Source: Squalus acanthias (taxonomy: Eukaryota). Taken from it: a stretch of 64,000 bases of DNA. This document shows, piece by piece, positions 4,181 through 45,751 of the stretch. The notes under the pieces were generated by a model, which was not told where the DNA came from, did no database searches, and saw nothing but the letters and a program-made list of their open reading frames with translations. The position numbers and the translations under genes are program-made. The stretch spans positions 49,416,001-49,480,000 of the forward strand of contig CM059432.1 of NCBI GenBank assembly GCA_030390025.1, in the 5' to 3' direction. How positions within the stretch are numbered: the first letter of the stretch is position 1; each line of letters opens with the position of its first letter.

Positions 4181-4674
4181 GTTCTGATGTAGTTGATGAA
4201 TTGAAAATCTTATAAAAATACTAGATTATTCCAATCATTTCTGAACAAAAAAGTAAGAGAGATTACAATCATCTAATTACAGAAAACCCATCAACTAGAA
4301 CAATTACATCCAGTTCATCTATAATACTGTGTCCATCACATGGTGGGTGATATAAAGGCCCTGGGAAATGTTCAGAGGAGGCCATTAGATTAATACCTAT
4401 CTTAAATGCCCTTAATTATCACAATAGGCTCAGAGAGCTGGGTCTTTTCACTGTAGAAAAGTGTAGACGTCAGGCAGATTTAATTGAGGCATTTAAATTT
4501 ACGAAAAGGACTAGATTGTGTCCAAGTGAACAGATTATTTGAATTAGATGAGTTAGGGAGAACGAGGGGGCATTTATAAAAGTTATGTAAGCTTTGCTGT
4601 TCAGATTGTTCAGAAATGACTGGAATAATCTAGTATTTTTATAAGATTTTCAATGCATCAAGCTACATCAGAAC
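4181..4674. repeat. ~68-bp inverted repeat (4181-4248 / 4606-4674) enclosing a CR1 fragment (about 4340-4592)
   Basis: gttctgatgtagttgatgaattgaaaatcttataaaaatactagattattccaatcatttctgaacaa matches the reverse complement of 4606-4674 with about 3 differences. Confidence 0.9.
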
Positions 4675-4717: not shown

Positions 4718-4810
4718 GGGGTACAGTAGCATAGTGGTTATGTCACTGAACTAGTAATCCAAAGGCCTGGGCTAATGATCCAGTAGATCCCAGTTCATAA
4801 TCCCACCATG
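4718..4810 (+). promoter_or_regulatory. tRNA-derived internal Pol III promoter (A box 4727-4737, degenerate B box about 4792-4803)
   Basis: tagcatagtgg fits TRGCNNARYGG; agttcataatcc is B-box-like, and copy 2 has the cleaner gagttcaaatcc on the minus strand near 28071-28082. Confidence 0.7.
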
Positions 4811-6760
4811 GCAGCTGGGTAAATTAATTAATTAAATAAATCTGGAATAAAAAGCTACCATCAGTAATAGTGACCATGAAACTACCTAATTGTAATAAAA
4901 ACCTATCTGGTTCACTAATGTCCTTTTAGGGAAGGAAAAGAAATCTGTTGTCCGTACCCGGTCTGGCCTATATGTGACTCCAGACACACAGCAATATGGT
5001 TGACACTTAACTGCCCTTTGAAGTGGCCTAGCAAGCCTCTGTATCTAAACCGTTATGAAAAATTATAACAAGAATAAAACCAGACCGACCGACCGATATC
5101 GACCTAGGCACCAGATTTGGCCATGAAAAGGCACGCCTAGCCCAGTCAACTCTGCAAAGTACGCCTCACTAACATCTGGGGACTTGCTCCAAAATTGAGA
5201 AAGCTGCGCCAAAAATGGGAGAGCTGTCCACAAATTAGTCAAGCAACAGCCTGACAGAGTCATACTCGCAGAATCATATCTTTTAGCCAACGTCCCAGAT
5301 TCCTGCATTAGCATCCCTGGGTCTCTCCTGCCGGGATACAACTGTGGCGGCACAGTGGTATACAGTCAGCAGGGAGTGGCCCTGGAAGTCCTCAACATTG
5401 ACTCCGGACCCCATGAAGTCTCATGGTATCAGGTCAAACATGGGCATGGAAACCTCCTGCTGATTACCACCTACCGCCCTCCCTCAGCTGATGAATCAGT
5501 ACTCCTCCATGTTGAACACCACTTGAAAGAAGCACGGAGGGTAGCAACGGCACAGAATGTACTTTGGGTGGGGGACATCAAAGTCCATCACCAAGAGTAG
5601 CTCGGTCGCACCACTACTGACCGAGCCATGAAGGACATAGCTGCCAGACTTGACCTGCAGCAGGTGGTGAGAGAACCAACACGAGGGAAAAACCTACTTG
5701 ACCTCGTCCTCACCAATCTACCTGTCGCAGATGCATCTGTCCATGACAGCATTGGTAGCAGTGACCACCGCACAGCCATTGTGGAGACGAAGTCCCGTCT
5801 TCACACTGAGGACACCCTCCATCGTGTTGTGTGGCACTACTGCCGTGCTAAATGGGATAGATTCAGAACAGATCTAGCAGCTCAAAACTGGGCATCCATG
5901 AGGCGTTGTGGGCCATCAGCAGCAGCAGAATTGTATTCCACCACAATCTGCAACCTCATGGCCCGGCATATCCCTCACTCTACCATTACCATCAAGCCAG
6001 GGGACCAACCCTGGTCAATAAGGAGTGTAGAAGAGCATGCAAGGAGCAGCACCAGGCGTACCTAAAAATGAGGTGCCAACCTGGGGAAGCTGCAACACAG
6101 GACTACATGCATGCAAAAAAGTGGAAGCAGCATGCTATAGACAGAGCTAAGTGATCCCACAATCAACGCATCAGATCAAAGCTCTGCAGTCCTGCCATTT
6201 CCAGTCGTGACTGGTGGTGGACCATTGAACAATAACGGGAGGAGGAGGCTCCATGAATATCCCCATCCTCAATGATGGTGGAGCACAGCACATTTGCAAC
6301 CATCTTCAGCCAGAAGTGCCGAATGGATGATCCATATCAGCCTCCTCCTGAGGTCCCCACCACCACAGAAGCCAGTTTTCAGCCAATCCGATTCACTCCA
6401 CGTGATATCAAGAAACGGCTGAGTGCACTGGATACAGCAAAGGCTGTGGGCCCCGACAACATCCCGGCTGTCGTGCTGAATACTTGTGCTCCAGAACTAG
6501 CTGCGCCTCTAGCCAAGCTGTTCCAGTACAGCTATAACACTGGCATCTATCCGACAATGTGAAAAACTGCCCAGGTATGTCCTGTCCACAAATAGCAGGA
6601 CAAATCCAATCCGGCCAATTACCGCCCCATCAGTCTACTCTCAATCATCAGCAAAGTGATGGAAGGTGTAGTCGACATTGCTAGCAAGTGGCACTTACTC
6701 ACCAATAACCTGCTCACTGATGCCCAATTTGGGTTCCGCCAAGACCACTCGGCTCCAGAC

Positions 6761-7772
6761 AGAGGGAAAGTAGAAAGTGAGGAGGACATAAAAAACCTAC
6801 AAGGGGATATAGACAAGCTGGGTGAGTGGGCAGAGATTTGGCAGATGCAATACAATATTGGAAAATGTGAGGTTATGCACTTTGGCAGGAAAAATCAGAG
6901 AGCAAGTTATTATCTTAATGGCGAGAAACTGGAAAGTACTGCAGTACAAAGGGATCTGGGGGTCCTAGTGCAAGAAAATCAGAAAGTTAGTATGCAGGTG
7001 CAGCAGGTGATCAAGAAGGCCAACGGAATGTTGGCTTTTATTGCTAGGGGGATAGATTATAAAAACAGGGAGGTATTGCTGCAGTTATATAAGGTATTGG
7101 TGAGACCGCATCTGGAATACTGCATACAGTTTTGGTGTCCATACTTAAGAAAAGACATACTTGCTCTCGAGGCAGTACAAAGAAGGTTCACTCGGTTAAT
7201 CCCTGGGATGAGGGGGTGGACATACGAGGAGAGGTTGAGTAGATTGGGACTCTACTCATTGGAGTTCAGAAGAATGAGAGGCGATCTTATTGAAACATAT
7301 AAGATTGTGAAGGGGCTTGATCGGGTGGATGCGGTAAGGATGTTCCCAAGGATGGGTGAAACTAGAACTAGGGGGCATAATCTTAGAATAAGGGGCTGCT
7401 CTTTCAAAACTGAGATGAGGAGAAACTTCTTCACTCAGAGGGTAGTAGGTCTGTGGAATTTGCTGCCCCAGGAAGCTGTGGAAGCTACATCATTAAATAA
7501 ATTTAAAACAGAAATAGACAGTTTCCTAGAAGTAAAGGGAATTAGGGGTTACGGGGAGCGGGCAGGAAATTGGACATGAGGCTGAGTTCGGATCGGTCGA
7601 GGCCCTGTGGGTGGCGTAGCGGGCCCAGGGGCTGAGTGGCCGGGTCCTGCTCCTACTTCTTGTGTTCTTTAGATTTGAGGTGAGGATCAGATCAGCCATG
7701 ATCTTATTGAATGGCGGAGCAGGCTCGAAGGGCCGATTGGCCTACTCCTGCTCCTATTTCTTATGTTCTTAT
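6761..7772 (+). mobile_element. Young 5'-truncated CR1 LINE nested in the tRNA-headed LINE
   Basis: Open RT C-terminal frame to 7579; near-identical to 47127-48137; ends in ttcttatgttcttat; the host sequence ggctccagac | tacagccttgg resumes on either side. Confidence 0.95.
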
Positions 7773-8977
7773 TACAGCCTTGGTCCAAACATGGACAAAA
7801 GAGCTGAATTCCAGAGGTGAAGTGAGAGTGACTGCCCTTGACATCAAGGCAGCATTTGACTGAGTGTCGAATCAAGGAGCCCTGGTAATACTGAAGTCAA
7901 TGGGAATCAGGGGGAAAACTCTCCACTGGCTGGAGTCATACCTAGCACAAAGGAAGATGGTTGTGATGGTTGGAAGTCAATCATCACAGCCCCAGGATAT
8001 CACTGCAGGAGTTCCTCAGGGCAGTGTCCTAGGCCCAACCATCTTCAGCTACTTCATCAATGACCTTCCCTCCATCATAAAGTCAGAAGTGGGGATGTTC
8101 GCTGATGATTGCACAGTGTTCAGCGCCATTCACAACTCCTCAGCTCATGAAGCAGTCCATGCCCGCTTGCAGCAAGACCTTGATGACATTCAGGCTTGGG
8201 CTGATAAGTGGCAGCTAACATTCACGCCACACAAGTGCCAGGCAATGACTATCTCCAAAAAGAGAGCTCCTTAACATTCAATGGTATTACCATTGCCGAA
8301 TCCCCCACCATCAACATCTTGGGGGCACCATTGACCAGAAACTTAACTGGACCAGCCACATAAATACTGTGGCAACAAGAGCAGGTCAGAGGCTGGGTAT
8401 TCTGCGGCAAGTGTCTCACCTCCTGACTCCCCAAATCCTTTCCACTATCTACAAGGCACAAGTCAGGAGTGTGATGGAATACTCTCCATCATTACAGCCC
8501 CAACATCATTCAAGAAGCTCGACACCATCCAAGACAAAGCAGTCCGCTTGATTAGCACCCCATCCACCACCTTAAACATTCACTCCCTCCACCACTGGCG
8601 TACCATGGCTGCCATGTGTACCATCTTCAAGATGCACTGCAGCAACTCGCCAAGGCTTCTTCGGCAGCACCTCCCAAACCCACGACCTCTACCAGCTAGA
8701 AGGACAAGGGCAGCAGGCACATGGAAACACCATCACCTCCAAGTTCCCCTCCAAGTCACACACCATCCTGACTTGGAAGTATGTCGCCGTTCCTTCATCG
8801 TCGCTGGGTCAAAACCCTGGAACTCCCTCCCTAACAGCACTGTGGGAGTACCTTCACCATACAGACTGCAGCAGTTCAAGAAGGCGGCTCACCACCACCT
8901 TCTCAAGGGCAACTAGGGATGGGCAATAAATGCTGGCTTTGCCAGCGACACCCGCATCCCATGAACAAATTTTAAAA

Positions 8978-11352
8978 AACAGTAAATGATCCATGGGAGT
9001 CCTTCAAAGAGGAGATAGTTCGGGTACAGAATAGACACATTCCAATGAGGGAAAAAAGGCCATCCAAAGCTAGAGCTCCCTGGATGACTAAAGAAAGATT
9101 AAAATGAAACAGAAAAAGGAGGCTTATGAGAAATGTCAGGTTCATAATACAGTAGAGAATCAAGCTGAATACAGAGAGAGTGCAGAGGAAAACTGAAAAA
9201 GGGAATAAGAGGGGGAAAGAGAATGTATTTGAAAAGATTAACAGGTAACATAGAAGGGAACACTGAAGTCTTTTCTAAACATAGAAAGAGTAAAAGGGTA
9301 GTCAAGGGAAGAGTGAAGCTGATTAGAGACCAAAAAGGAAATCTTATTGTGGAGGCCGAGGACATGGCTGAGGTACTAACTGAGTACTTTGCATCTGACA
9401 TCACTAAAAAAAGGATGCTGTCAATGTTACAGTAAAGGAGGAGGGGGTAGAGGAATTGGATAGGATAAAAATAAAGAGGTACTAAAACACCTGGCAGTGT
9501 AGAAAAGTCACCCGGCCCAGATGGGATGCATCTTCGGTTGCTGAGAAATGTATGGGTGGATAAAGCGGAGGCTCTGCCCACAAACTTTCAATCCTCCTTG
9601 GAAATGGGAGTGGTACAAGAGGACTGGAGGGTTGCAAGTGTTACACCCCTGTTCAAAAAAGGGGAGATAGATAAACCAGGTAACTACGAGCCAGTCAACC
9701 TAACATTGACGGTGGGGAAACTTCTCGAGACAATAATCTGAGACAAAATTAATTGTCACTTGGAAGAACATGGGTTAATAAATGACAGCCCGCACAGATT
9801 TGTTAAAAGCAAATCCTGTTTGACTAACTTGATTTAGGTTCTTCGATGAACGATCACATGGTTTTTGCGTGGAGTGGAGAGTATATATATTGTGATGCAT
9901 CACAATTGTGCGGGACAGGCTGGATGGACCAGAGGGTCTTTTCCGTTCAGTCATTGTTCGTACGTTTGTATGAAGGTTGATTTTGTGTATTTGGACTTTC
10001 AAAAGACACTTGATAAAGTGCCACATAATAGACTGGTTAGCAAAATTGAAGCCCACGGGATTAAAGGGGCAGTGGCGGCTGACAAGACAGAAAACAGAGA
10101 GTAGTAGTGAACGGTTGTTTTTCCAGACTGGAGGGAAGTATACAGTGTTGTTCCCCAGAGGTCGGTATTAGGACCACTGTTCTTTTTGATATGTATTAAT
10201 GGCCTGGACTTGGGTATGGGGGCATAATTTCAAAGTTTGTGGCTGACACAAAGCTTGGAAATGTAGTAAACAGCGGAGGAGGATAGTAACAGACTTCAGG
10301 AGGACATAGACAGACTGGTGAAATGGGAAGACACATGGCAAATGAAATTTAATGCAGAGAAGTATGAAGTGATGCATTTTGGAAGGAAAAATGAGAGGCA
10401 GTATAAACTAAATAATACAATTTAAAGGGGGTGCAGGAACAAGGAGACCTGGGGGTGTATGCACGCAAATCTTTGAAGGTGAAAGGACAAGTCGATAAGG
10501 CTGTTAATAAGGCCTACGGGATCCTTGGGCATATTAATAGAGGCATAGCATACAAAAGCAAGGAAATGATGGTAAATCTTTATAAATCACTGGTTACACC
10601 TCAGCTAGAGTAGTGTGTTCAATTCTGGGCACCACAATTTAGAAAGGGTGTCAAGGCCTTGGAGAGAGTACAGAAGAGATTTACTAGAATGGTACCAGAG
10701 ATGAGGGAACTTATTTATGTTGGGAGACTAGAAAAGCTGGGCTTGTTCTCCTTAAAGCAAAGGAGGTTAAGGGGAGATTTAATAGAGCCTTTCAAAATTA
10801 TGAGAAGTTTTGACAGCGTAGATAACAACAACAACTTGCATTAAAAAGCATCTTTAACGTAGTAAAATATCCCAATGCGCTTCACAGGAGCAAACAAAAT
10901 TGGACACCGAGCCACATAAGATGATATTAGGACAGATGATCAAAAGTTTGGTCAAAGAGGTAGGTTTTAAGGAGCGTTTTAAAGGATGAGAGAGAAGTAG
11001 AGAGGCTGAGTGGCTTAGGGGGTTAATTAGATAGGGAGAAACTGTTTCCACTAGCAGGAGGGTCAGTAACTGGAGGACACAGATTTAAGATAATTGGCAA
11101 AAAATCCAGCGAGGTGAAAGAAGGAGGAAATGTCTTACTCATTGTGTTATGATGTTCTGGAATGCATTGCCTGAAAGGGTGGCGGAAGCAGATTAGATAG
11201 TAACTTTCAAAAGGGAATTGGATATATGCTTGAAAAAGAAAAATTTGAAGGGCTATGGGGAAAGAGCAGGAGAGTGGTACTAATTGGTAGCTCTTTCAGA
11301 GAACACAGGCATCATGGGCCGAATGGCCTCCTTCTGTGCTGTATGATTCTAT
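8978..11352 (+). mobile_element. Degraded CR1 LINE (ORF2 RT region and 3' end) with nested inserts
   Basis: Fragments encode VTPLFKKG, VYLDFQK..DKVPH and LGLFSL; the 3' end is gtatgattctatg. Confidence 0.9.
10825..11027 (-). mobile_element. L2 LINE 3' terminal fragment inserted into a CR1
   Basis: Flanked by a tagata duplication (10819-10824 / 11028-11033); encodes an L2-like C-terminus (LKRSLKPTSL); ends in a (gtt)n tail; terminal sequence resembles the Deu-SINE tail. Confidence 0.7.
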
Positions 11353-13722: not shown

Positions 13723-14367
13723 ATGACTGCTGCAAGATCTAAGGCTGCTCCTAGATTTGATGATGACTCCCTCCATTCTCTTGTGGAGTAAGAGGGCGCA
13801 GGGAGGTTTTGTTCCCTCCCGATGGCCGGAGGAAGCCTCCTCAGCAGACAAAGGCAGCCTGGCTGAAAATTGGTGAGGAGGTAAGCGCAAGGTCGTTGTG
13901 CTCACGTACCTGGGTGCAGTGACGAAAAAGGTTCAATGATCTGCTACGCTCAGCAAAAGTGAGTATAACATCACACTTACCTTCAATCTGCTTCCCTTCT
14001 GTTCTCATCACCAGCACTTTGACATTGTCAACCTACTCCTCCATATCCCAACTTACCCTTACTTCCCTTGCACCCTTACCTATCCCTCTCTCTCTATGTA
14101 GAGAATCACTTCACCATCCAACTATGCACCCCTCACACTCGCTATCACTGTTATGCAATGACAACAACTAACAACGCACAGGGAGGCACCTTGGTTTTGG
14201 CACCTCACTCCATCTTTGTCTCCCTCTAAGCTTCTATGTTATGGATTCTTCACACTCACTCCATCAAGGTGCAGCATAGAAGTGAGCAAAGTGCCTCTAC
14301 ATCTGCTGAAGCCACAGGGGAAGAACCACATAGAAGCACGCGCAAGAGAAAGTTAACACACAAATAG
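13723..14367 (+). pseudogene. Harbinger Myb/SANT-like DNA-binding partner (exon 1 at 13723-13958, last exon about 14260-14367; middle deleted)
   Basis: Manual translation gives MTAARSKAAPRFDDDSL...REVLFP...KAAWLKIGEEVSARS...RTWVQ*RKRFNDL followed by a GTGAGT donor; the C-terminus SASTSAEATGEEPHRSTRKRKLTHK* matches ORF 41395-41727. Confidence 0.8.
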
Positions 14368-14560
14368 TCACAAGGGTAGTCACTTGGGTGTTTTCATCTG
14401 ATACAAACGTTTGTCATTGTGATTATAATTGTATTAAAGAAAAGCGATGGCAAAGATTCAAAGAGTTGGCCTATGTGTGCTCAGAAATGGAAGTTGCACA
14501 GTGAGGGGTCAGGGCGCCTTTCATTTGTAATGATGGTGGTGAAAGTGATAGAAAACCAGT

Positions 14561-15786
14561 TTATTTTACAGATGCTGTATAGTGTGTTAAGAAGGTCGGC
14601 CAGACATTCATTTCCATGTGCCAGCCATATGTGCTTGATGCCCTTGCCTCACAGTCAGCAATGTGCTCGTGTGCTGGTGGATTTGGCACATCCGCCCCCA
14701 CAAGGCATCCCTCATCTGCCGCCTCCTCCTCCTCTTCCGAGGAGGCTGTGCGCTGAGCCATTTGTTCCTCAGGCAGCGCTAAGCCACGCTGCTATGCAAT
14801 GTTGTGCAGGGCACAGCAGGCCACGATGATTCTGGAGACCCTGGCTGGTGCGTACTGTAGGGCTCCACCAGATCTGTCGCGGCATCTGAATTGCATTTTG
14901 AGCAAGCTGATGGTTTGCTCTATGATACTTCTGGTGGAAATGTGGCTCACATTGTACCGCTCCTCAGCTTTGTTTGATGGCCTCATCGGTGTCATTAGCC
15001 ACTTTTTCAGGGGATAGCCCTTGTCTCCAAGTAGCCATCTGGAAAGTTAGGTTGGCGGATTGAAGAACTGCGGCACAGTGAACTGCCGCAGGATGAAAGA
15101 GTCATGGCAACTGCCAGGGAACTTGGCGCAAACATGCATGATAATCTTCCTGTGGTTACACACCAGCTGGACGTCAAGGGAGTGGAAGCCCTTGCGGTTG
15201 ACAAATACAGCTGGGTTGTGATGGGGTGCCCTAATGGCCACATGTATGCAGTCTACGACGCCCTGCACCCTTGGAAAGCCTGCCATATTTGCAAAGCCAA
15301 CTACACGCGCAGTTACACTTGCTTCATCTGTGGAGAAGTGGATGTAATTGTGTGACTTTGCAAAGAGGGCATCGGTAACCTGCGTGATGCAAGTGTGTGC
15401 GGCCGACTGGGAGATGCTGCTGATGATCCCTGGAAGGACCCCGAAGCAAAGAAGTTGAGTGCGGTGGTGACTTTTACAGCCACTGGTAAGGAGTGGCCAC
15501 CCGCTCCTCTGGGCTCCAGGTGTTGGTGCAGCATTGTGCAGATGTCAGCGACTACCTCTCCATCAATAGTCTCAGCTTCCTTTGGCACTGCTTCTCACTC
15601 ATGTTGAGGAAGCTCATCCTCGGCCTGTAAACCCTGTGTTGGGGGTATCTCCGGCCCTCTGCCCTGTGCATCATCAGGTGGCTGAGGAGAAGGTTGGCGC
15701 TCCTGTTGTGCCTGGTTCTGCTGCTGCCGTGGCTGCTCTTCCTCCGATTCTGAGGACCAGGATGAGAGGGTATAAATGGTTCCCAT
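14561..15786 (-). pseudogene. Harbinger (HARBI1-like) DDE transposase, frameshifted
   Basis: Motifs [59 protein letters not shown] and ACCALHNIA. Confidence 0.93.
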
Positions 15787-16769
15787 CCCGCTGGTATATA
15801 TCTCAGTTGAGAAAGAGATGTTATCAGCGCTCAGTCAATGTGGCCAGAGGGTATTCCAAGGAGGTCACAGTGCATATGGATCTCAGCTTAAACACTCACA
15901 AGCTCAATAGACCTGCAAAATATGCTCCAAAACTTAAAGCACAAAGTTCTGGCATCTGAAAGTGAGCAATGTTGCACGACCGCTTTTATGCTGCAGCAGC
16001 AGCTGTCAACAATTCAGCTACTTGCTGAACCCGGCACAATCAGCTGGCGTGTTTGTCGCACGACGGACAACATGCTGAAAATGTTGTAAAATGGGAAGAG
16101 CCAGTAAAAAAAGGATTATCTAGGCAGTTAACAAGCTGTTAACTGCCTTAAGTGCCTCTCCCGCCGTTTGGTGTCGGGTCTCATCGGGACTCGCAGACCC
16201 TACGCAAAGTTACGTGGAGGCGGGATGGCGGCGGGTTCGCAACCCACCATCAATCTTTTGGATTTTAACTCCCGACCCGTCTCCAAACCTGCCCTCTGAG
16301 CGCCAGCAAAATCGTGGCCAGGGTCTAAAAATAATTTTTAAAAATAGACTTTGATCCAACAAGGCCACAACACAGGATAATCAAATTACAAACATATTTG
16401 AAATGTGCCAAGACTGAATATACTGAAATACAAACCTAATCAATAATGAGTCCATACTGTCCTGAGGTTATTATCTACTGCTTGGCCGTAGCACCTACCC
16501 ATTAGATAATAAAGGGCAATTAAAGACCAAGAGTCATTTTCACAGATTAAAAACTTAGTAAGAATATTCCTACAATATTTATTTTAGCTTCTAGACAACC
16601 AACTACACAATAAAACAAATCAACAGTAAAACCAATTTTTGACAGTATGCTGGAATTGAGGAAAGTAGATACATTGAAGCAACATAACTTTGTAGCAAAT
16701 ATGTCAAGATCTAGCTCTAACTGGATGATTCAGATTTACATAGATGGATTGTCAGATCCTAAATCATAA

Positions 16770-18831: not shown

Positions 18832-20980
18832 CTTTGTTTTTTATTCATTCACGGGATGTGGGCATCGCTGGCAAGGCCAGCATTTATTGCCCATCCATAA
18901 TTGAGAAGGTGGTGGTGAGCCACCTTCTTGAACCGCGGTATTCCGTGTGGTGAAGGTACTCCCACAGTACTGTTAGAAACATAGAAAAATAGGAGCAGGG
19001 ATAGGCCATTTGGCCCTTCGAGCCTGCTCCGCCATTCAATATGATCATGGCTGATCCTCTATCTCAATACCATATTCCCGCTCTCTCCCCATACCCCTTG
19101 ATGCCTTTTGTGTCTAGAAATCTATCTATCACCTTCTTAAATATATTCAGTGACTTGGCCTCCACAGCCTTCTGTGGTAGAGAATTCCACAGGTTCACCA
19201 CCCTCTGAGTGAAGAAATTTCTCCTCATCTCAGTCCTAAATGTCCTACCCCGTATCCTGAGACTGTGACCCCTCGTTCTAGAGCCCCCAGCCAGGGGAAA
19301 CATCCTCCCTGCATCCAGTCTGTCTAGCCCTGTCAGAATTTTATACGTTTCAATGAGATCCCCTCTCATTCTTCTAAACTCTAGTGAATACAGGCCTAGT
19401 CGGCCCAATCTCTCCTCATAAGACAGTCCTGCCATCCCAGGAATCAGTCTGGTGAACCTTCGCTGCTCTCCCTCTATGGCAAGTATATCCTTTCTTAGGT
19501 AAGGAGACCAAAACTGCACACAGTACTCCAGGTGTGGTCTCACCAAGGCCCTGTACAACTGTAGTAAGACATCCTTGCTCCTGTACTCAAACCCTCTTGC
19601 AATGAAGGCCAACATACCATTTGCCTTCCTAACTGCATGCTGCACCTGCATGTTTGCTTTCAGTGACTGGTGTACAAGGACACCCAGGTCCCTTTGTACA
19701 TCAACATTTCCCAATCTATCACCATTTAAATACTCTACCTTTCTGTTTTTCCTACCAAAGTGGATAACTTCACATTTATCCACATTATACTGCATCTGCC
19801 ATGTATTTGCCCACTCACTCAACTTGTCTAAATCGCCTTGAAGCCGCTTTGCATCCTCCTCACAACTCACAATCCCACCTAGTTTTGTGTCGTCAGCAAA
19901 CTTGGAAATATTACATTTGGTTCCCTCATCCAAATCATTGATATACATTGTGAATAGCTGGGGCCCAAGCACTAATCCCTGCGGTACCCCACTAGTCACC
20001 GCCTACCACCCCGAAAAAGACCCATTTATTCCAACTCTGTTTCCTGTCTGTTAACCAATTTTCAATCCATGCCAGTATATTACCCCCAATCCCATGTGCT
20101 TTAATTTTGCACACTAACCTCTTATGTGGGACTTTATCAAAGGCCTTCTGAAAATCCAAATACACCACATCCACTGGTTCTCCCTTATCTATTCTACCAG
20201 TTACATCCTCAAAAAACTCCAGTCGGTTTGTCAAACACGATTTCCCTTTCATAAATCCATGCTGACTTTGTCTAATCCCGTTGATATTTTCTAAGTGTCC
20301 TGTTATCACATCCTTTATAATACTCTAGCATTTTCCCTACTACTGATGTTAGGCTAACCGGACTGTAGTTCCCAGTTTTCTCTCTCCCTCCTTTTTTAAA
20401 TAGTGGGGTTACATTTGCCACCCTCCAATCTGCAGGAACTGTTCCATAATCTATAGAATTTTGGAAGATGACAACCAATGCATCCACTATTTCCATGGCT
20501 ACCTCTTTTAGTACTCTGGAATGCAGATTATCAGGCCCTGGGGATTTATCAGCTTTCAGTCCCATTAATTTCTCCAGCACTATTTTATTACTGATACTAA
20601 TTTCCTTTAATTCCTCCTTCTCACTAGACCCTTGGTTCCCTAGCATTTCTGGGAAGTTATTTGTATCCTCTTCTGTGAAGACAGAACCAAAGTATTTGTT
20701 TAATTGCCCTGCCATTTTCTTGTTCCCCATTATAAATTCTCCCGTTTCTGACTGGAAGGGACCTACATTTGTCTTCACTAATCTTTTTCTTTTTACATAC
20801 TTATAGAAGCTTTTACAATCCGCTAGGTAGGGAATTCCAGGATTTTGACCCAGCGACGATGAAGGAACGGTAATATATTTCCAAGTCAGGATGGTGTGTG
20901 ACTTGAAGGGGAACATAAAGGTGCTGGTGTTCCCATGCCCCTGTTGCCCTTTTAGGTGGTAGAGGTCGTGAGTTTGGGGC
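18832..20980 (-). mobile_element. 3' fragment of the tRNA-headed LINE family (copy 3), split by a CR1
   Basis: 18832-18976 and 20821-20980 together match 24972-25280. Confidence 0.85.
18977..20820 (-). mobile_element. 5'-truncated CR1 LINE (ORF2 RT)
   Basis: ORFs 20272-20916, 19992-20309 and 19064-19999 carry SPGPD, YLDFQKAFDKVPH, GVPQG and KFADDTK; 3' tail ttctatgttt. Confidence 0.95.
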
Positions 20981-24003: not shown

Positions 24004-24971
24004 GCAGTAACCATGAAGGCATCTAATCTAGTGTAAATTATGTTTTAAATATATATTTAATGACATCTGTTTGTGTGCAACATTGCTATACTGTTGAGTT
24101 CCTAAAAAAGGAAAGCCTGCAGGAACTTTTCTATGTCAGGAAAAAGTGTGCATTATACACAAATATGCATGAAAAAGTAAACTTTATCTGGGCGGTTCTG
24201 TGATCTGGTGGTGCAAGCAGAGAGTGCATCGCGAGAAATCCATGGGTATGCACTGTGATTTTCTGTCCATTAAACTAATGGATGGAAAATTGCCAACAGC
24301 ATGCCCACAATTTCCCAAGATGAACTCTGAGTAACTGCATCTCGCTGGAAGCTCTAGATTGTGGAATTGCTCCTTATATGTAGTGCGCATTATAGGTTAT
24401 ATTTTCCAATCAGTGATCAAGTCTGACTGTCAAGTACATTCTACATTCCTTTGTACTTTTGCAGGCAGATTTAAAACCCATTTAAAATACATAGGTTAAT
24501 GTCTGCCTAAAGACAGCACACAGAGGAATGTAATATGAGCACGCTTAGCATTTATATTTGATTGGAAAATACACACCTGTATGTGATGTGTAATGTGTGC
24601 AAAAATTGATTACTTAGCTGCATTGTAGGCCATATTTAACTTTCTTTTCTCATGTTTGACACTAAATTTGACAGGATTTATTTTTCTCATTTTTTCTTTT
24701 GAAGCTCCCAAGAACTTTCAGTTTCATAGTAATACCCTATGCAACTAAACAATAGATGGTCATGTTCTTCAGCTTAAATTTCCAGATCAGTGGGACCCCA
24801 GAGATACGGCATGAATGGCTAAAATTGGCCATTCTCACCATTTCTCCAGGGATTCCGTTGATCTACAGCCAAAGTTACATCAGAGGATTGGCAAAATCCT
24901 GGAGAAATTCACGGCCATTCTCCTCATTGTTTAAAATTAGTTCTACCTCTTCTCTAATCTGCTCTTTTAAG

Positions 24972-27900
24972 TTTTTTTATTTGTTTATGGGATGTGAGAA
25001 TCGCTGGCAAGGCCAGCATTTATTGCCCATTCCTAATTGCCCTTGAGAAGGTGGTGGTGAGCCGCCTTCTTGAACCGCTGCAGTCTGTGTGGTGAAGGTA
25101 CTCCCACAGTGCTGTTAGGTAGGGAGTTCCAGGATTTTGACCCAGCGACAGTGAAGGATCGGCAATATACTTCTAAGTCAGGATGATGTGTGACTTGGAG
25201 AGGAACTTGGATGTGGTGGTGTTTCCATGCGCCTGCTGCCCTTGTCCTTCTAGGTGGAAGAGGTTGAGGGTTTGGGAGGTGCTGCCGAAGAAGCCTTGGC
25301 GAGTTGCTGCAATGCATCTTGTAGAGGGTACACACTGCAGCCACAGTACACTGGTGGTGGAGGGAGTGAATGTTTAAAGAGATGGATGGGGTGCCAAACA
25401 AGCAGGCTGCTTTGTCCTGGATGGTGTCGAGCTTCTTGAGTGTTGTTGGAGCTGCACTCATCCAGGCAAGTGGAGAGTATTCCATCACACTCCTGACTTG
25501 TGCCTTGTAGATGGTGGAAAGGCTTTGGGGAGTCAGGAGGTGAGACACTCACCGCAGAATACCCAGCCTCTGACCTGCTCTTGTTGCCACAGTATTTATG
25601 TGGCTGGTCCAGTTAGGTTTCTGGTCAATGGTGACCCCCAGGATGTTGATGGTGGGGGATTCGGCGATGGTAATGCCGTTGACTGTCATGGGGCGGTGGT
25701 TAGACTCTCGCTTGTTGGAGATAGTCATTGCCTGGCACTTGTGTGGTGCGAATGTTACCTGCCACTTATTAGCCCAAGCCTGAATGTTGTCCAGGTCTCA
25801 TTGCATGCGGGCATGGACTGCTTCATTAGCTGAGGAGTTGTGAATGGCGCTAAGCACTGTGCAGTCATCAGCGAACATCCCCATTTCTGACCTTATGTTG
25901 GAGGGAAGGTCATTGATGAAGCAGCTGAAGATGGTTAGGCCTAGGACACTGCCCTGAGGAACTCCTGTAGCGATGTCCTGGGGCTGTGATGATTGACCTT
26001 CAACCACCACAACCATCTTCCTTTGTGCTAGGTATGACTCCAGCCAGTGGAGCGTTTTCCCCCCCCGATTCCCATTGACTTCAGTTTTACTAGGGCTCCT
26101 TGATGCCACACTCGGTCAAATGCTGCCTTGATGTCAAGGGCATTTACTCTCACCCCACCTCTGGAATTCAGCTCCTTTGTCCATGTTTAGACCAAGGCTA
26201 TAATGAGGTCGGGAGCCGAGTGGTCTTGGCGGAACCCAAACTGGGCATCAGTGAGCAGATTTTTGGTGAGTAATTGCCGCTTGATAGCACTGTTGATGAC
26301 ACCTGTCCATCACTTTGCTGATGATTGAGAGTAGACTGATGGGGCTGTAATTGGCCGGGTTGGATTTGTCATGCTTTTTGTGGACAGCACATACCCGGGC
26401 AGTTTTCCACATTGTCGGATAGATGCCAGTGTTGTAGCTGTACTGGAACAGCTTGGATAGAGGCGCGGCTAGTTCTGGAGCACAAGTCTTCAGCACGATA
26501 GCCGGAATGTTGTCGGGACCCACAGCCTTTGCTGTATCCAGGGCGCTCAGTTATTTCTTGATATCACGTGGAGTGAATCGAATTGGCTGAAGACTGGCTT
26601 CTGTGATGGTGGGGACCTCAGGAGTAGGCCGATATGGATCATCCACTCGGTACTTCTGGCTGAAGATGGTTGCAAACGCTTCAGCCTTGTCTTTTGCACT
26701 CATGTGCTGGGCTCCACCATCATTAAGGATGGGGATATTCATGGAGCCTCCTCCTCCCATTAGTTGTTTAATGGTCCACCACCATTCACGACTGGATGTG
26801 GCAGGACTGCAGAGCTTTGATCTGATCCGTTGATTGTCGGATCGTTTAGCCCTGTCTATAGCATGCTGCTTCTGCTTTTTAGCTTGCATGTAGTCCTGTG
26901 TTGCAGCTTCTCCAGGTTGGCACCTCATTTTTAGGTATGCCTGGTGCTGCTCCTGGCATGCTCTTCTGCACTCCTTATTGAACCAGGGTTGGTCCCTTGG
27001 CTTGGTGGTAATGGTAGAGTGAGGGATATGCCGGGCCATGAGGTTACAGATTGTGGTGGAATACAATTCTGCTGTTGTTGATGGCCCACAGCGTCTCATG
27101 GATGTCCAGTTTTGAGCTGCCAGATCTGTTCTGAATCTATCCCATTTAGCACGGTGGTAGTGCCACATACACGATGGAGGGTGTTCAGTGTGAAGATGGG
27201 ATTTCGTCTCCACAATGACTGTGCGGTGGTCACTGCTACCAATACTGTCATGGATAGATGCATCTGCGACAGGTAGATTGGTGAGGACGAGGTCAAGTAG
27301 GTTTTTCCCTCGTGTTGGTTCTCTCACCACCTGCCGCAGGCCCAGACTGGCAGTTATGTCTTTCAGGACTCGGCCAGTAGTGGTGCTACCGAGCCACTCT
27401 TGGTGATGGACATCACCCAACGTACATTCTGTGCCCTTGCTACTCTCAGTGTTTCCAAGTGGTGTTCAACATGGAGAAGTACTGATTCATCAGCTGAGGG
27501 AGGTAATCAGCAGGAGGTTTCCTTGGCCATACTTGACCTGAAACCATGAGACTTCATGGGGTCCGGAGTCAATGTTGAGGACTCCCAGGGCCACTCCTTC
27601 CCGACTGTATACCACTGTGCCACTGATTTACGGTGACTGAATAAGTGAACAATGGTGATGGAGGAGTTTGGGACATTGGCTGAAAGGTATGATTCTGTGA
27701 GTATGACTATGTCAAGCTTGACTAGTCTGTGGGACAGCTCTCCCAATTTTGGCACAAGATGTTGGTAAGGAGGACTTTGCAGGATTGGCTGGGCTGGGTG
27801 TGCCGTTGCCGAGGTCAATGGGGGCAGTCGATGGAGGTCCGTCCGGTTTCATTTTATTATGTTTCGTAGTGGTTAGTTACAACTGAGTGGCTTGTTAGAC

Positions 27901-28152
27901 CATTTCAGAGGGCAGTTACATATAGGCCAGACCAGGTAAGGACTGCAGATTTCCTTCCCTAAGGGCATTAGTGAACAAGATAGGTTTTTACAACATGATT
28001 ACCATTACTGATACCAGCTTTTTATTTAATATTAATTAATTAATATTTAAATTCCCCAGCTGCCGTGGTGGGATTTGAACTCACGTCTGTGGATCATTAG
28101 TCCAGGCCTCTGGATTACTAGCCCAGTGACAGTACCACTACGTTACCGTTCC
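24972..28152 (-). mobile_element. Single-ORF APE-RT LINE with a tRNA-like 5' head, copy 2 (near full length, decayed)
   Basis: ORF fragments 27507-27818, 26551-27420, 26248-26523, 25798-26109 and 25033-25548 carry APE and RT motifs; the head at 27850-28152 is homologous to 4718-5100; A-rich 3' tail. Confidence 0.92.
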
Positions 28153-30184
28153 ATAACTGTTTCTACAGATACTGTAGACTTCATTATAAATAAACTAGCA
28201 GATCACCTGTGACTTTACGCATGATGAGTTGGAAGATTCGCTTTTTAGAACAGGGCTATTATGCCATGTAGGGCATGATATCAGGACCACTGATTTACGG
28301 TGCCGGATAAGTTAATGATGATATTCTGGGTTTTTAACCAGTGCTTTGGCGATTTAATTTCATGACTCTATGCTTATTATTTTGTAAAAACCATAAATGA
28401 AAGACCTTTTTGTGGTTATATATTCCATTAGTGTTGGAATTAAATTTTTTAAAGGTGAACATACACAGTAAGATGGTATACACGATGTAGCAGTTAGGGG
28501 TATGTACCCGATAGTTAGCAATACTAGGGCAGGGGATGGACTGACCATATGGATGAGGCTGTGCTGTGGTCTGGCCGAAATGTGGAGGAGGAACTTAAGG
28601 TTTGGCAGAACCAGTGGTGAAATATAGGGTTTGGTGCATTCCTGGGATCTATCAGCAATGAGGGGACATGGGTCTGACATAATGGGATTCACAAAAGGAT
28701 TCTGATGAATGGTCACTGCTTGGAACATTAACATATTGAGGCATATTTTCCTCATTTGCATTTAGACATAAAGGATTGCTGGGGCACAGCGTACAGAGAA
28801 AAACAATCCTAGTACCTCAAGTAGAGGTTATGAGCAAATATAGAAAGTTATGTGTTTTTTTTTAACAGTTTGCAGATCATTTAACACTAACAACAACAAA
28901 AAAGAGCAGTTAAGAAATGGTTCATAAAGTCTTACCTTAAGATGACTTTGTCCTGTCCATGACTTTGTGTACTTACCGTTACCTAGCAAACCTGGATGCC
29001 AATATTAGATGGGTGAGATTATAAATTGATGTCCTGCATGCTAGAAATGATGTGCTAAATGTCCTTATCCCAAAATTAATATTCAAAAATGGTCCCTCCT
29101 ATTTTCACGATAGAGATGGATAGGGATATTTAAGAATTTTGTAGCCAAATCCAAAATGGTATCCAAAATATGAAAACTGTTTTTGAAAAATTCAGGGAAT
29201 CTGAATTAAAATTCAGTTAACATATTTAGATGGGGCCCTGTGCAACATCCCCCTCACCACCTGCAAGACAGGTGAGAGCCAGAGTTTATACCTGCATGGG
29301 GCAGGTGGGTGCTAGGGACGTGTGTGCAGTAGTGATTGTACCTACCTAGCCCATGCTAATTAGGTGCCCTCCCATTGATTCTACAAGGTCTGGCAGAGTC
29401 AGCAGTGGAGGGCATGATGAGCACGATCCCAGCGTAACTGTCAGAATTGCGTCTCGAGGAATTTCAGCACTGTATCTACTTCTAAAAAAAAAGTCTTCTA
29501 ACTTCCCCTTCGTTCTTGTAGTGATGATCCTGCAGAGGCAAAATTTGAGTAAGTGAGCCAATTGGCTGTCTTCTCACTAGAGCAGTAGAACTCATAGTGG
29601 TACCCCAGGGGCTATTTGTAGCCTCCCTCCCCTTTACCTATGGCCCTCAGCAAACATGTGCATCTGAGCCTGCATCCAATCTGCTTGGCTGTAGGTTAGT
29701 GATCAAAATAAGGTTCAGTGCTGTGCCCCTTCTCCTTTACAGCTAACCCCAGTTTTTATAAAGAGGGTGAAAGGGCATATTAAAATATAACTTAATAGAT
29801 AATTTATTCTATAGTTCTTATTTTCTCTTACTATAGACAAGTGTCTGACCATGGCAATTTCAGAGAGTGGGATGATTGAAGTGAGGAGTAGGGAATCACA
29901 AACGTGGCTCCACATCTCATTCAACATATTTCAGCATTCCGAGAGTGGACTTGGGAAAATTTGACTGGAACTGTAGCGTTCAATAAAACGTTACTGAGTA
30001 GCTGTACCCTGGATGAGCTTACTTGTGTGTGTGCTGTGGCCGATAGCCTAGTGAGGGCAGAATAAACACTCAAATGAAATAAGTAACAGCAAGCAATCTG
30101 TCAGTCAACTCCATTCTCACTGTCTCTTTTTTAAAATGAGCTAAAGAAGAAAATTGCCATTAGTCATTTATATTGACCAAAGTC

Positions 30185-39755: not shown

Positions 39756-39926
39756 GGAGCAGTTGCAAGTGGCAGAACTTTTGTTCCAAAGGTCTTTCAG
39801 CACTTTTAGCAGGCCTACAGAAGTCAGAGGTGCTGCAGCTTCTACCTCTCAACTGTGGGACCTTCTTGGAAGACCCTCTCCCAGCTTGGACTGAGCGCTT
39901 CCCCAACAGAGGCATCTGCCAGCAGC

Positions 39927-41139
39927 ATGGGAGCCATTTATTTCCTTTCTTCATGGACCTCAGATTCGGATGAGGAGCAGCCACGGCAGCAGCAGAACCA
40001 GGCAGCTCAGCAGCAACAGCAGCTGGAGCCCCAACCTGCTGCTCACCCACCTGATGCTTCACAGGGCAGAAGGCGCCAGCACATCGAGACACCTCACCGC
40101 AGGAGATACCCCCAACACAGGGTTTACAGACAGAGGATAACCTACCTCAACATGTGTGAGCAGCAGTGCCAAAGGAGGCTGAGACTTTCGCGAGAGGTTG
40201 TCGGAGACATCTGCGCACTGCTGCACCAACACCTGGAGCCCAGAGGAGCGGGTGGACACCCCTTACCAGTGGCTGTCAAAGTCACCACCGCACTCAACTT
40301 TTTTGCCTCAGGCTCCTTCCAGGGATCATCAGCAGACATCAGCGGCATCTCACAGTCGGCCGCCCACAGTTGCATCATGCAGGTTACCAATGCCCTTTTC
40401 GCAAAGGCCCACAATTACATCAAGCAAGTGTAACTGCACGTTCAGTTGGCTTTGCCAATATGGCAGGCTTGCCAATGGTGCAGGGCGTCATAGACTGCAC
40501 ACATGTGGCCCTTAGGGCACATCATTACAACCCAGCTATCTTTGTCAACCGCAAAGGCTTCCACTCTCTCAAAGTACAGCTGGTGTGTAACCACAAGAAG
40601 GGGATTTTGCATGTTTGCGCCAAGTTCTGTGGTAGTTGCTATGACTCGTTCATCCTGTGGAACTCTAGTGTTCCTCCGCTCTTCAATCTGCCAAACCAAC
40701 TTAACAGATGGCTCCTTGGTGACAAGGGCTACCCCCTTGAAGAAGTGGCTAATGATGCCGATCAGGAGGCCAGCTAACGAGGCTGAAGAGCGCTACACGC
40801 CAGCCACATTTCGACCAGGTCCATCATCGACAAACCATTGGCTTGTTGAAGATGCAATTCCGATGCCTTGACAGATCAGGTGAACCCCTGCAGTATTCAG
40901 CAGCCAGGGTCTCCAGAATGGTTGTGGTCTGCTGTGCGCTGCACAACATGGCACAGCGTCGTGGCTTGCAACTTCCTGATGAGCAAGTAGCTCAGTTCAT
41001 AGCCTCCTCAGAAGAGGATGAGGATGAGGAGCAGGAGGAGGACCGAGCACCGGCCTATCGGCCAGCAGCAGTGGCAGCACGCGAGCACATGGCTGCCCGT
41101 GATGGAAGGCATGCACTTATCCTGGCCAGATTTGCATAG
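39927..41139 (+). pseudogene. Harbinger (HARBI1-like) DDE transposase, frameshifted
   Basis: MGAIYF...RLRLSR...[10 protein letters not shown]...[41 protein letters not shown] and CCALHN. Confidence 0.94.
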
Positions 41140-41394
41140 GTTGCCCATGTTGGCACATGTCCTTGGCTCCATCTTAAGATATGATTGACAATGGACATGA
41201 CTCTCTGGCCTCCTTTCACTCTGGCCACAAACCTCACCATGCAAGTGTCGCAAAGCCCGCAATGTGGAGCTGCCTAAGGCGAAATATCAGATGCCATCAC
41301 GCCAACAATTTGCCATCAAATCATTTTTATACTTTCAAACAGGGATGGCATTTTGTCAATACACAAACATTCACCCAAGTGGCTACCCCTGTGA

Positions 41395-41750
41395 CTAATG
41401 GTGCTTTATTTTTCTCTTATGCGCGCTCCTACGTGGTGCTCCCCCTGTGGCTTCAGCAGAAGTGGAGGCATCTTGCTCACTTTCATGCTGCTCCTGCTTC
41501 AACACTTTTGGCAGGCATCCTCTGGGTTTATGAGCCTGTGAGGGCTCACCAAACATCTGCTCCTCCTGCGGCAGTGCAGGGGCTGAGACGCCCATCTCAG
41601 TTGGGTGGGGACTCTGGTGGGGCTCTGACTGAGGGCTACGCAGTGGCATGGAAGTGTGAGCGCTTGGAGAGGAGCCCCCACTTCCTTGTTGTCTGCCACC
41701 AACTTCCCTCTCATGGGTCAGGTCCACCTCAGTGCTTGCAATGGGCTTGA
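41395..41750 (-). pseudogene. C-terminal exon of the Harbinger Myb-like partner
   Basis: Ends ASTSAEATGGAPRRSAHKRKIKHH, homologous to 14260-14367, and converges on the transposase. Confidence 0.7.
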
Positions 41751-43325: not shown

Positions 43326-43696
43326 GAGCGGCGGCGGACCTGCGGGGAACCAGGCGGCGGCGGCGAGGTTTAAGAGGCGGCAGAGACCAGGTAGGCCTCA
43401 GAGCGGCGGCGGACCTGCGGGGAACCAGGCGGCGGCGGCGAGGTTTAAGAGGCGGCAGAGACCAGGTAGGCCTCAGAGCGGCGGCGGACCTGCGGGGAAC
43501 CAGGCGGCGGCGGCGAGGTTTAAGAGGTGGCAGAGACCAGGTAGGCCTCAGAGCGGCGGCGGACCTGCGGGGAACCAGGCGGCGGCGGCGAGGTTTAAGA
43601 GGCGGCAGAGACCAGGTAGGCCTCAGAGCGGCGGCGGACCTGCGGGGAACCAGGCGGCGGCGGCGAGGTTTAAGAGGCGGCAGAGACCAGGTAGGC
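43326..43696 (+). repeat. 75-bp GC-rich tandem repeat (about 5 copies) forming the CR1 5' end
   Basis: Units start at 43326, 43401, 43476, 43551 and 43626; only one substitution was seen among them. Confidence 0.97.
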
Positions 43697-43952
43697 GTAC
43701 CAATTTCCGAGCTCGGAGGGAGAGAAGTAAAAAGTAATCGAAGTGTGACGTCACCAGAAAGCAGGTAAGTGATTGGTTGGTGAGTATTTCTCTCTTTTTA
43801 AACTTAAACTCTGTGGTTTATAGTTTCTAAGCTCTCTGTGGTGTAGCGGGGACTGTTGGTAAACCAGGGCCCTTAAGTATATAATTTAACTGTAGTGCAA
43901 TTGGTGGGATTGATTTGTTTTAATTTAATTTGAATTAATTAAAGGGTAAGTC

Positions 43953-44902
43953 ATGGCAGGAGAGCTCGGCCCCGTGGTATGTTCCTCCTGTGCTATGTGG
44001 GAAATCAGGGACCCTTCCGGTGTCCTTGACAACCATGTGTGCGGGAAGTGTATCCAGCTACAGCTACTGGCAGACCGCATTACAGCGCTGGAGCTGCGAT
44101 TGGATGCGTATTGGAGCATTCGCGATGCTGAGAACCTCGTGAATAGCACGTTTAGCGAGTTGGTCACACCGCAGGCAAAGGGTGTACAGGCAGTTAGTAA
44201 ATGGGTGACCACCAGGCAGAGTAAGAGGTGCAGGCAAGTAGTGCAGGGGTCCCCTGTGGACATCCCCCTCTCAAACAGATATGCCACTTTGAATACTGTT
44301 GTGGGGGATGACTTATCAGGGGAAGGCAGGAGCAGCCAACTTCCTGGCACCATGGGTGGCTCTGCTGCACAGGCCGGGAGGAAAAAGAGTGGAAGAGCTA
44401 TAGTGATAGGGGACTCAATTGTAAGGGGAATAGATAGGCGTTTCTGCGGCCGCAACCGAGACTCCAGGATGGTGTGTTGCCTCCCTGGTGCAAGGGTCAA
44501 GGACGTCTCGGAGCGGCTACAGAACATTTTGGAGGGGGAGGGCGAACAGCCAGCTGTCGTGGTGCACATAGGCACCAACGATATAGGTAAAAAAGGGGAT
44601 GAGGTCCTAAAAGCAGAATATAGGGAGTTAGGAGGTAAATTAAAAATAGGACCTCAAAGGTAGTAATCTCAGGATTGCTACCAGTGCCACGTGCTAGTCA
44701 GAGTAGAAATAGGAGGATATTTCAAATGAATACGTGACTAGAGGAATGGTGCAAGGGGGAGGGATTCAAATTCCTGGGACATTGGAACCGGTTCTGGGGG
44801 AGGTGGGACCAGTACACACCGGACGGTCTGCACCTGGGCAGGGCCGGGACCGCTGTCCTAGGGGGAGTGTTTGCTAGTGCTGTTGGGGAGGGTTTAAACT
44901 GA
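43953..44902 (+). pseudogene. CR1 ORF1 (Cys-rich zinc finger, leucine zipper, SGNH esterase)
   Basis: CSSC..W...CGKC, a heptad leucine segment, GDSIVR, PGARV, HIGTND and DGLHL; frameshift near 44650 and an internal stop near 44735. Confidence 0.92.
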
Positions 44903-45616
44903 AGTGGCAGGGGGTTGGGCACCTGAGCAGGGAGACAGAGGAAAGCGTGTCAGGAAGGGACAGAAGGTATGGAGTAAAAGGTAAAGTGTTAAAAAAGGAA
45001 AAAGCAGGAACTAAGTGTCAAAAAACATATTTGAAAGTTCTTTATCTGAATGCACGTAGCATTCGTAACAAAATGGACGAGTTAACGGCACAAATAACTA
45101 CGTATGGGTATGATCTTGTGGCCATTACAGAAACATGGCTGCAGGGTGACAACGACTGGGAACTAAATATGCCAGGGTATTTAACAATCAGGAAGGACAG
45201 GCAGGAAGGAAGGGAGGTGGGGTGGCTATGTTAATAAAGGAAGGAATCACTAATACAGAGAAATGATATTGGGTCAAAGGATCAGGATAATGAAACAGTT
45301 TGGGTGGAGATAAGGAATAATGAGGGGAAAAAAACACTAGTGGGAGTAATATATAGGCCTCCTAATAGTTGCAACTCTGCTGGAAGAAGTATTAATCAGG
45401 AAATGGTTGGGGCATGTAATAAGGGAACAGCTATAATTATGGGGGATTTTAACTATCATATTAACTGGACAAATCAAATTGGGCAGGGCAGCCTTGAGGA
45501 AGAGTTTATTGAGTGTATTAGGGATGGATTTCTTGAGCAGTATGTAACTGATCCTACAAGGGGGCAAGCAACCTTGGACCTGGTCCTGTGTAATGAGTCA
45601 GGATTAATTAATAATG

Positions 45617-45751
45617 CGATAGCAAAATACTGCGGATGCTGGAAATCTGAAATAACAACAGAAAACGCTGGAAAAACTCAGCAGGCCAGGCAGCATCCGT
45701 GGAGAGAGAAAGAGAGTTAACGTTTCAGGTCGATGACCTTTCATCAGAACC
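45617..45751 (-). mobile_element. 135-bp Penelope-type pLTR insertion with a 14-bp TSD
   Basis: TSD attaattaataatg at 45603-45616 and 45752-45765; near-identical to 61622-61752. Confidence 0.9.
45715..45751 (-). ncRNA. Minimal type I hammerhead ribozyme
   Basis: The minus strand reads GGUU CUGAUGA A AGGUC AUC GACCU GAAA CG UU AACU: intact core, 5-bp stem II, palindromic ACGU stem III, stem I GGUU/AACU. Confidence 0.8.

Follow-up and report, generated by a model that had tools for sequence, protein, structure and literature searches.

A tRNA-like 5' end on the Zenon LINEs of sharks and a ray, and its possible use as an internal polymerase III promoter

We analyzed a 64,000-nt stretch of Squalus acanthias DNA (assembly GCA_030390025.1, contig CM059432.1, positions 49,416,001 to 49,480,000; hereafter the window, numbered from its first base), which holds several copies of a long interspersed element (LINE). 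Self-alignment of the window identified two full-length copies, copy 1 at 4718-8972 (+) and copy 2 at 28152-24972 (-), which align end to end once a CR1 fragment nested in copy 1 is left out (82% and 89% by BLASTN; 79-93% by region). Their 5' starts agree within two bases, their flanks are unrelated and they have no common target-site duplication. Both show the same order: a tRNA-like head, a body of about 145 nt, a spacer of about 100 nt, and a frame for an apurinic endonuclease (APE) and a reverse transcriptase (RT), with no ORF1 (first open reading frame); in both, the reading frames are disrupted by stops and frameshifts. With 3181-3249 nt and an APE-RT, the element lies outside the class of short interspersed elements (SINEs), non-autonomous sequences shorter than 700 bp. 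Alignment and a motif scan confirmed the preliminary description of this DNA, according to which the same head with A and B boxes leads into the APE in two copies; the 5' region of about 400 nt resolves into a tRNA-like part of about 100 nt, an AT-rich linker, the body and the spacer. The features are as follows.

4718-4815 (+): putative tRNA-derived head of copy 1, with A box, anticodon-like arm, extra arm of about 23 nt and B box (sequence, motif scan).
4816-4900 (+): AT-rich linker, 83% identical to copy 2.
4901-5045 (+): conserved body in the 5' untranslated region (UTR), common to the SINE-sized forms; 90% identical to copy 2 and present in 7/7 elasmobranch consensuses.
5046-5152 (+): body-to-APE spacer, in which the family has its upstream ATG (here ATA, 5074-5076), from the alignment, the consensuses and contig ends.
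5153-6761 (+): 5' half of ORF2, the only ORF, covering the APE, the linker and the beginning of the RT, with stops and frameshifts (translation; TBLASTN with full-length relatives; shark homologues).
6762-7767 (+): nested younger 3' fragment of a canonical CR1, foreign to the element; 97.8% identical to 47127-48137; copy 2 has no such insert at the corresponding position.
7768-8916 (+): 3' half of ORF2 (RT and C-terminus), with stop codon TAG at 8914-8916; Pfam RVT_1 at 7864-8271, E=6e-19.
8917-8980 (+): 3' UTR, which is short and contains a stem-loop and AATAAA (8925-8930), followed by an A-rich tail (fold test, alignment of three tails).
24972-28152 (-): copy 2, full-length, with the head from 28152 to about 27871, the upstream ATG at 27852, APE-RT and tail (alignment, motif scan, Pfam).
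18835-20978 (-): copy 3, 5'-truncated, of which the 3' ~300 nt are left in two parts (20978-20824, 18976-18835) on either side of another CR1 (self-alignment, tail alignment).

In copy 1, positions 5165-5185 encode the APE motif LTNIWGL; the APE domain matches Exo_endo_phos_2 with E=4e-5, which is under the curated Pfam cut-off. All named homologues of the protein are from sharks, only two long intact relatives of the APE part were found (25-27% identity), and searches of metagenome and viral collections for the element gave no matches. The tails of all three copies in the window are short and A-rich; that of copy 1 contains a TTTT run (8970-8973) that does not occur in the other two, and the stem-loop of the 3' UTR has fold z-scores of -2.0 in copy 1 and -0.9 in copy 2.

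The element is an elasmobranch Zenon, a family already catalogued as a LINE (PMC13343379). The same source describes the Zenon LINEs of sharks and rays as having no ORF1 and a poly-A tail. The lack of ORF1 pointed out earlier is thus real, since the approximately 430 nt between the 5' end and the APE are too little for such a frame, and it is nothing special, because Zenon is described there as being without ORF1 throughout. The supplementary table of PMC13343379 holds 10 Zenon consensuses, the first 400 nt of which were compared with our copies. The head, body and spacer stand at the start of all seven elasmobranch consensuses (five species, one of them a ray), and the head is found in none of the three from hagfish and coelacanth. 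Copy 2 and SquAca_Zenon-1 are identical, by eye, at 105 of their 108 first bases, and six 10-mers from the B box match only six rows of the table, all of them elasmobranch Zenons.

Contigs from public runs agree with this boundary. On copy 1, 201, 222 and 281 contigs (runs X1, X8 and X13; agreement 0.32) end sharply at 4719 and have unrelated flanks, so that upstream of this position no sequence is common to them. Contigs leaving the body at 5037 run into the LINE spacer (187, 212 and 17 in runs X8, X13 and X17; agreement 0.55-0.61, mixed), and no single contig among those listed covers the whole stretch from the head onward. Run X23, from a different organism, yielded 156 partly matching reads on 24900-28300, along the LINE and the body bin and none on the tRNA part, which are too few to interpret; run X24 had no matching reads on the element. 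The seven elasmobranch consensuses and the sharp 5' end in three runs give good support to the claim that the head is an integral part of the LINE.

In the Zenon table, intact ORF2 copies number 0/2313, 1/1419, 3/612, 1/294, 0/59 and 0/396, the seventh cell being unreadable (PMC13343379). With few or no intact copies the family appears largely dead, and copy 1 is a decayed, dead full-length copy of this common shark-and-ray LINE. The words "tRNA" and "Pol III" do not occur in the main text of PMC13343379, and the tRNA nature of the Zenon 5' end seems not to have been remarked on before. A literature search retrieved neither a tRNA-headed Zenon nor an autonomous LINE that RNA polymerase III (Pol III) transcribes; Repbase, Dfam, Nishihara 2006 and the supplements of PMC5499810 and PMC3531059, which could list a SINE or the head, were outside this search.

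The head carries both boxes of an internal promoter. The A box lies at 4727-4737 in copy 1 and at 28145-28135 in copy 2, the B box at 4793-4803 (with one extra T) and from 28080, respectively; their spacing is kept at 65-66 nt, and both boxes were also seen by eye in the published consensuses. In copy 1 an anticodon-like arm (4746-4762) has a loop of 7 nt with AGT in the anticodon position (4753-4755), which we take to be that of threonine; with the letters that prevail in other copies at 4749 and 4762, as read from the public-run contigs, the stem of the arm pairs again. The extra arm (4763-4792) differs in sequence between Squalus and the other consensuses, yet it can pair in both by eye; this is a hint that selection may act on the RNA structure of the head.

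ARAGORN found no tRNA genes. Among 4227 Rfam families, tRNA was the best right-strand match of the copy 2 head, scoring 15.8 bits where the cut-off is 29 (E=0.99, with a 23-nt insert), and the head of copy 1 had no Rfam tRNA match. In these tests the homology of the head to tRNA is weak. Folding of both heads gave no cloverleaf. We read the head as a degenerate, putatively tRNA-derived sequence of the SINE type.

The body does not belong to the conserved SINE domains with which it was compared. The SacSINE1/Deu domain, first considered for it, was dropped, as visual comparison showed no resemblance between the body and the Deu core given in the supplement of PMC7245038; with one mismatch allowed, the three Deu core motifs had no sense-strand match in either head and one antisense match in the spacer-APE region. 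The cores of the Meta and UCON3 domains did not match by eye either.

SINE-sized forms that join the head to the tail are absent from the 64-kb window. Such short derivatives were looked for in the public runs, and five head-tail joints were found in X1 and X15. With copy 2 as the reference, the 15 joints with the best support, ahead of 1804 others, include four that lead from the head's end into the tail; the fifth comes from a second table. Relative to copy 2 they imply forms of 319-393 nt. Their head ends lie within 28 nt of one another, and their tail starts are spread over 48 nt, four of the five being inside the end of ORF2; two joints retain 3 and 10 nt past the usual end of the body, in the LINE spacer. 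The varied breakpoints fit repeated deletion from the LINE, and the clustered head ends equally fit one old SINE with renewed tails. Hence the earlier suggestion that the LINE could be a parent of SINEs by internal deletion gains head-plus-tail forms with several breakpoints, while the direction of descent is not established. Contig depth over the head bins and the APE-start bins is about equal in X1 (319-356k and 241-289k) and is 10-20k against 2-5k in X15; it was not used as a SINE-to-LINE ratio, since depth is no copy number and alignment alone produces hundred-fold swings.

These observations support well the view of a known LINE family with an undescribed feature, namely a 5' end of tRNA type kept across sharks and a ray, together with SINE-sized head-tail forms. 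As to what the head does, the explanation that we find somewhat more probable than not is that Zenon took up a Pol III promoter and gives off SINEs when its interior is deleted. An ancestral Zenon would have acquired the head from a tRNA-derived SINE or from a tRNA, via template switching. The internal A and B boxes would then let TFIIIC and Pol III read the entire single-ORF (APE-RT) element of 3.2-3.3 kb, so that each full-length copy would carry its own promoter. The uncapped RNA would need a non-standard translation start for ORF2, perhaps with the help of the conserved body; reverse transcription would be primed on the 3' stem-loop and A tail; and loss of the coding middle, likely on more than one occasion, would leave a ready-made SINE. 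Taken in full, as an autonomous coding LINE of 3.3 kb that is transcribed by Pol III from a tRNA promoter, purged of T-runs, translated without a cap, kept in sharks and rays, and turned into SINEs in one step by deletion of its coding middle, the proposal is tentative, and we put it slightly below an even chance.

The start of translation bears on this proposal. Copy 2 (27852) and, by eye, six of the seven elasmobranch consensuses have an upstream ATG some 75 nt ahead of the APE motif; one consensus is without it. The statement in the preliminary description that no start ATG is obvious thus holds for copy 1, which reads ATA at this site and whose ATGs at 5055 and 5123 seem peculiar to this copy or have a stop behind them, and it does not extend to the family. 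The ATG of copy 2 is out of frame with the APE, as is, by eye, that of the ray consensus; in SquAca_Zenon-2 it is apparently in frame by eye, at an ambiguous base; and in four of the consensuses the frame from ATG to APE runs beyond the 400 nt. Candidate explanations for the start of ORF2 are a frameshift, initiation at a codon other than AUG, or an error in copies that have decayed. In the frame of the upstream ATG (5074-5152; 27852-27775) the differences among the five species fall, by eye, mostly at third codon positions, as if it were translated; in copy 2 this frame is out of register with the APE.

Pol III terminates at runs of at least four T. The sense strand of copy 2 (3181 nt) has no such run where 4.8 are expected (P=0.008), and its runs of A, C and G are near expectation; this scarcity could reflect selection against premature termination. 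The TT dinucleotide occurs at 0.72 and 0.79 of expectation in the two Zenon copies compared with 1.07-1.19 in two CR1 and two Harbinger control copies, which have 2-11 T4 runs each. The three internal T4 runs of copy 1 are not found in copy 2, and those at 4924 and 5281 are not in other copies either.

Several points weigh against transcription by Pol III. Copy 1 is not depleted, with three T4 runs for 5.1 expected (P=0.25), a count that leaves out the tail run at 8970-8973. Shuffling that preserves dinucleotides accounts for much of the depletion: it predicts 2.0 T4 runs for copy 2, from which zero does not differ significantly (P=0.14). Codon or amino-acid use may also contribute to the poverty in T. 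As both copies belong to the same family, the depletion is a single observation, and the controls were CR1 and Harbinger copies, with headless Zenons not among them. The tRNA match of the head is below the Rfam cut-off, and the head folds no better than shuffled sequences (z=1.1 and 0.1). Each head-tail joint is represented by 1-3 contigs per run, mostly with the note that what lies between is not known, and the public runs are shark-like assembled contigs whose RNA label is a guess. The AATAAA and A tail of the 3' UTR fit polymerase II (Pol II) as well, and Pol III is regarded as poorly processive across kilobases (PMC10886601).

The main rival explanation, which we consider unlikely although it keeps an appreciable chance, is that the head is a fixed and repurposed 5' UTR. 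The front of a captured SINE would serve as an internal Pol II promoter or as an RNA-structure element, or the LINE would be transcribed by read-through from promoters of the host, and its poverty in T would be ordinary LINE composition. This agrees with the description of autonomous LINEs as Pol II-transcribed (PMC10886601, PMC3531059), with AATAAA and the A tail, and with the loss of significance once dinucleotides are kept; a capped RNA would also remove the translation problem, given the upstream ATG of six consensuses and its apparent in-frame position in SquAca_Zenon-2. It accounts less well for three observations: the element and its tRNA-like part have the same first base, which is the expected start for Pol III; the A and B boxes are both kept across sharks and a ray; and the depletion is T-specific and not seen in the four control copies.

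A second alternative, doubtful to a similar degree and compatible with either polymerase, reverses the ancestry. A SINE with the head and a Zenon tail would predate the headed LINE, which took over its 5' part, and present SINEs would descend from that SINE instead of arising by deletion. The Zenons of hagfish and coelacanth are without the head, so it was gained, most simply from a SINE; template switching is the accepted model for how modules are exchanged (PMC4824008, PMC7245038); and the clustering of the five head ends is what one old SINE with varied tails would produce. However, the spread of the tail starts, most of them in the end of ORF2, and the two joints that reach into the LINE spacer fit repeated deletion from, or recombination with, the LINE. 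Finally, a chance neighbourhood of SINEs inserted before 5'-truncated LINEs, or fused to them during consensus building, might be imagined because the SINE and the LINE have a common tail and are both abundant and because automated consensus extension, the method of PMC13343379, can yield chimeras, but it is effectively refuted by the identical junction in two genomic copies with no SINE tail between body and APE, by the agreement of five species, and by the hundreds of contigs in three runs that pass from body to spacer.

The window is rich in repeats, and others were noted as well. A CR1 insertion splits two of the three Zenon copies (copies 1 and 3), which indicates that CR1 activity outlasted or followed the Zenon insertions. 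A near full-length canonical CR1 lies at 43326-48137 (+); its 5' end carries a tandem array of five 75-nt units (43326-43775), a weak match to a GDSL esterase was found at 43950-44660 (E=0.0012), and the identity of 97.8% between its 3' 1 kb and the fragment nested in copy 1 points to a young subfamily. Decayed copies of a Harbinger-type DNA transposon (DDE_Tnp_4), about 78% alike, are located at 39856-41495 (+), 14267-15869 (-), 53424-53864 and 59812-59998. Just upstream of copy 1, a 69-nt inverted pair (4181-4248 and 4606-4674, 96%) surrounds a CR1-like fragment.

According to the usual division, LINEs are coding and transcribed by Pol II, and SINEs are non-coding and transcribed by Pol III; if a successful vertebrate LINE does depend on a tRNA promoter, this division breaks down. 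Such a LINE would also exemplify in nature a long mRNA made by Pol III whose translation starts in an unusual way, and would open a direct route to SINEs, with a single LINE as the source of head, body and tail. Kojima (2018, PMC5786205) remarks that the source sequence of the conserved bodies of SINEs had yet to be discovered. The Zenon body is not one of the named conserved SINE domains, but it would present a route to SINE bodies in testable form. Even under Pol II, the conserved tRNA-like head adds to a common shark repeat a trait that had gone undescribed, and it is relevant to the annotation of SINEs and LINEs.

The closest known elements are SquAca_Zenon-1 and -2 (Stuart et al. 2026, PMC13343379), which are of the same length class (2886-3314 nt) and likewise have a single ORF, no ORF1 and an A tail. 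We see no structural difference between the window copies and elasmobranch Zenon; the head stands in the sequences of that paper, whose main text describes neither it nor the short derivatives. The tRNA-derived SINEs (SINE2 in SINEBase, PMC3531059) likewise begin, at the extreme 5' end, with a tRNA-like head bearing A and B boxes, which is followed by a body and by a tail of LINE type, whereas Zenon is 3.2 kb long, rather than under 700 bp, and encodes an APE-RT between body and tail. Another shark element with a tRNA head and a conserved body is SacSINE1, one of the DeuSINEs of sharks and coelacanth (PMC5499810). The Zenon body is without the Deu core, and the tail is Zenon's own, while that of SacSINE1 is reported to be L2-2_CM-like; the comparison draws on this published account and not on the SacSINE1 consensus itself. 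The bipartite non-autonomous derivatives of RTE and Vingi, and the SINEs built on them (Kojima 2018, PMC5786205), are similarly short, with the 5' and 3' ends of a LINE and an internal deletion. In that account only RTE and Vingi form bipartites and the tRNA head is added later, whereas here a LINE of the CR1 group already has the head. A possible precedent is provided by RTE-1_DAn and elements related to it, autonomous LINEs said to contain tRNA-like sequence (PMC5786205), but these are of the RTE clade. Lastly, Cassandra, Helenus and Ajax, which are terminal-repeat retrotransposons in miniature (PMC10886601), are likewise retrotransposons other than SINEs with Pol III promoters derived from small RNAs; in contrast to Zenon, they are short non-coding long terminal repeat elements, and their autonomous partners are expected to use Pol II.

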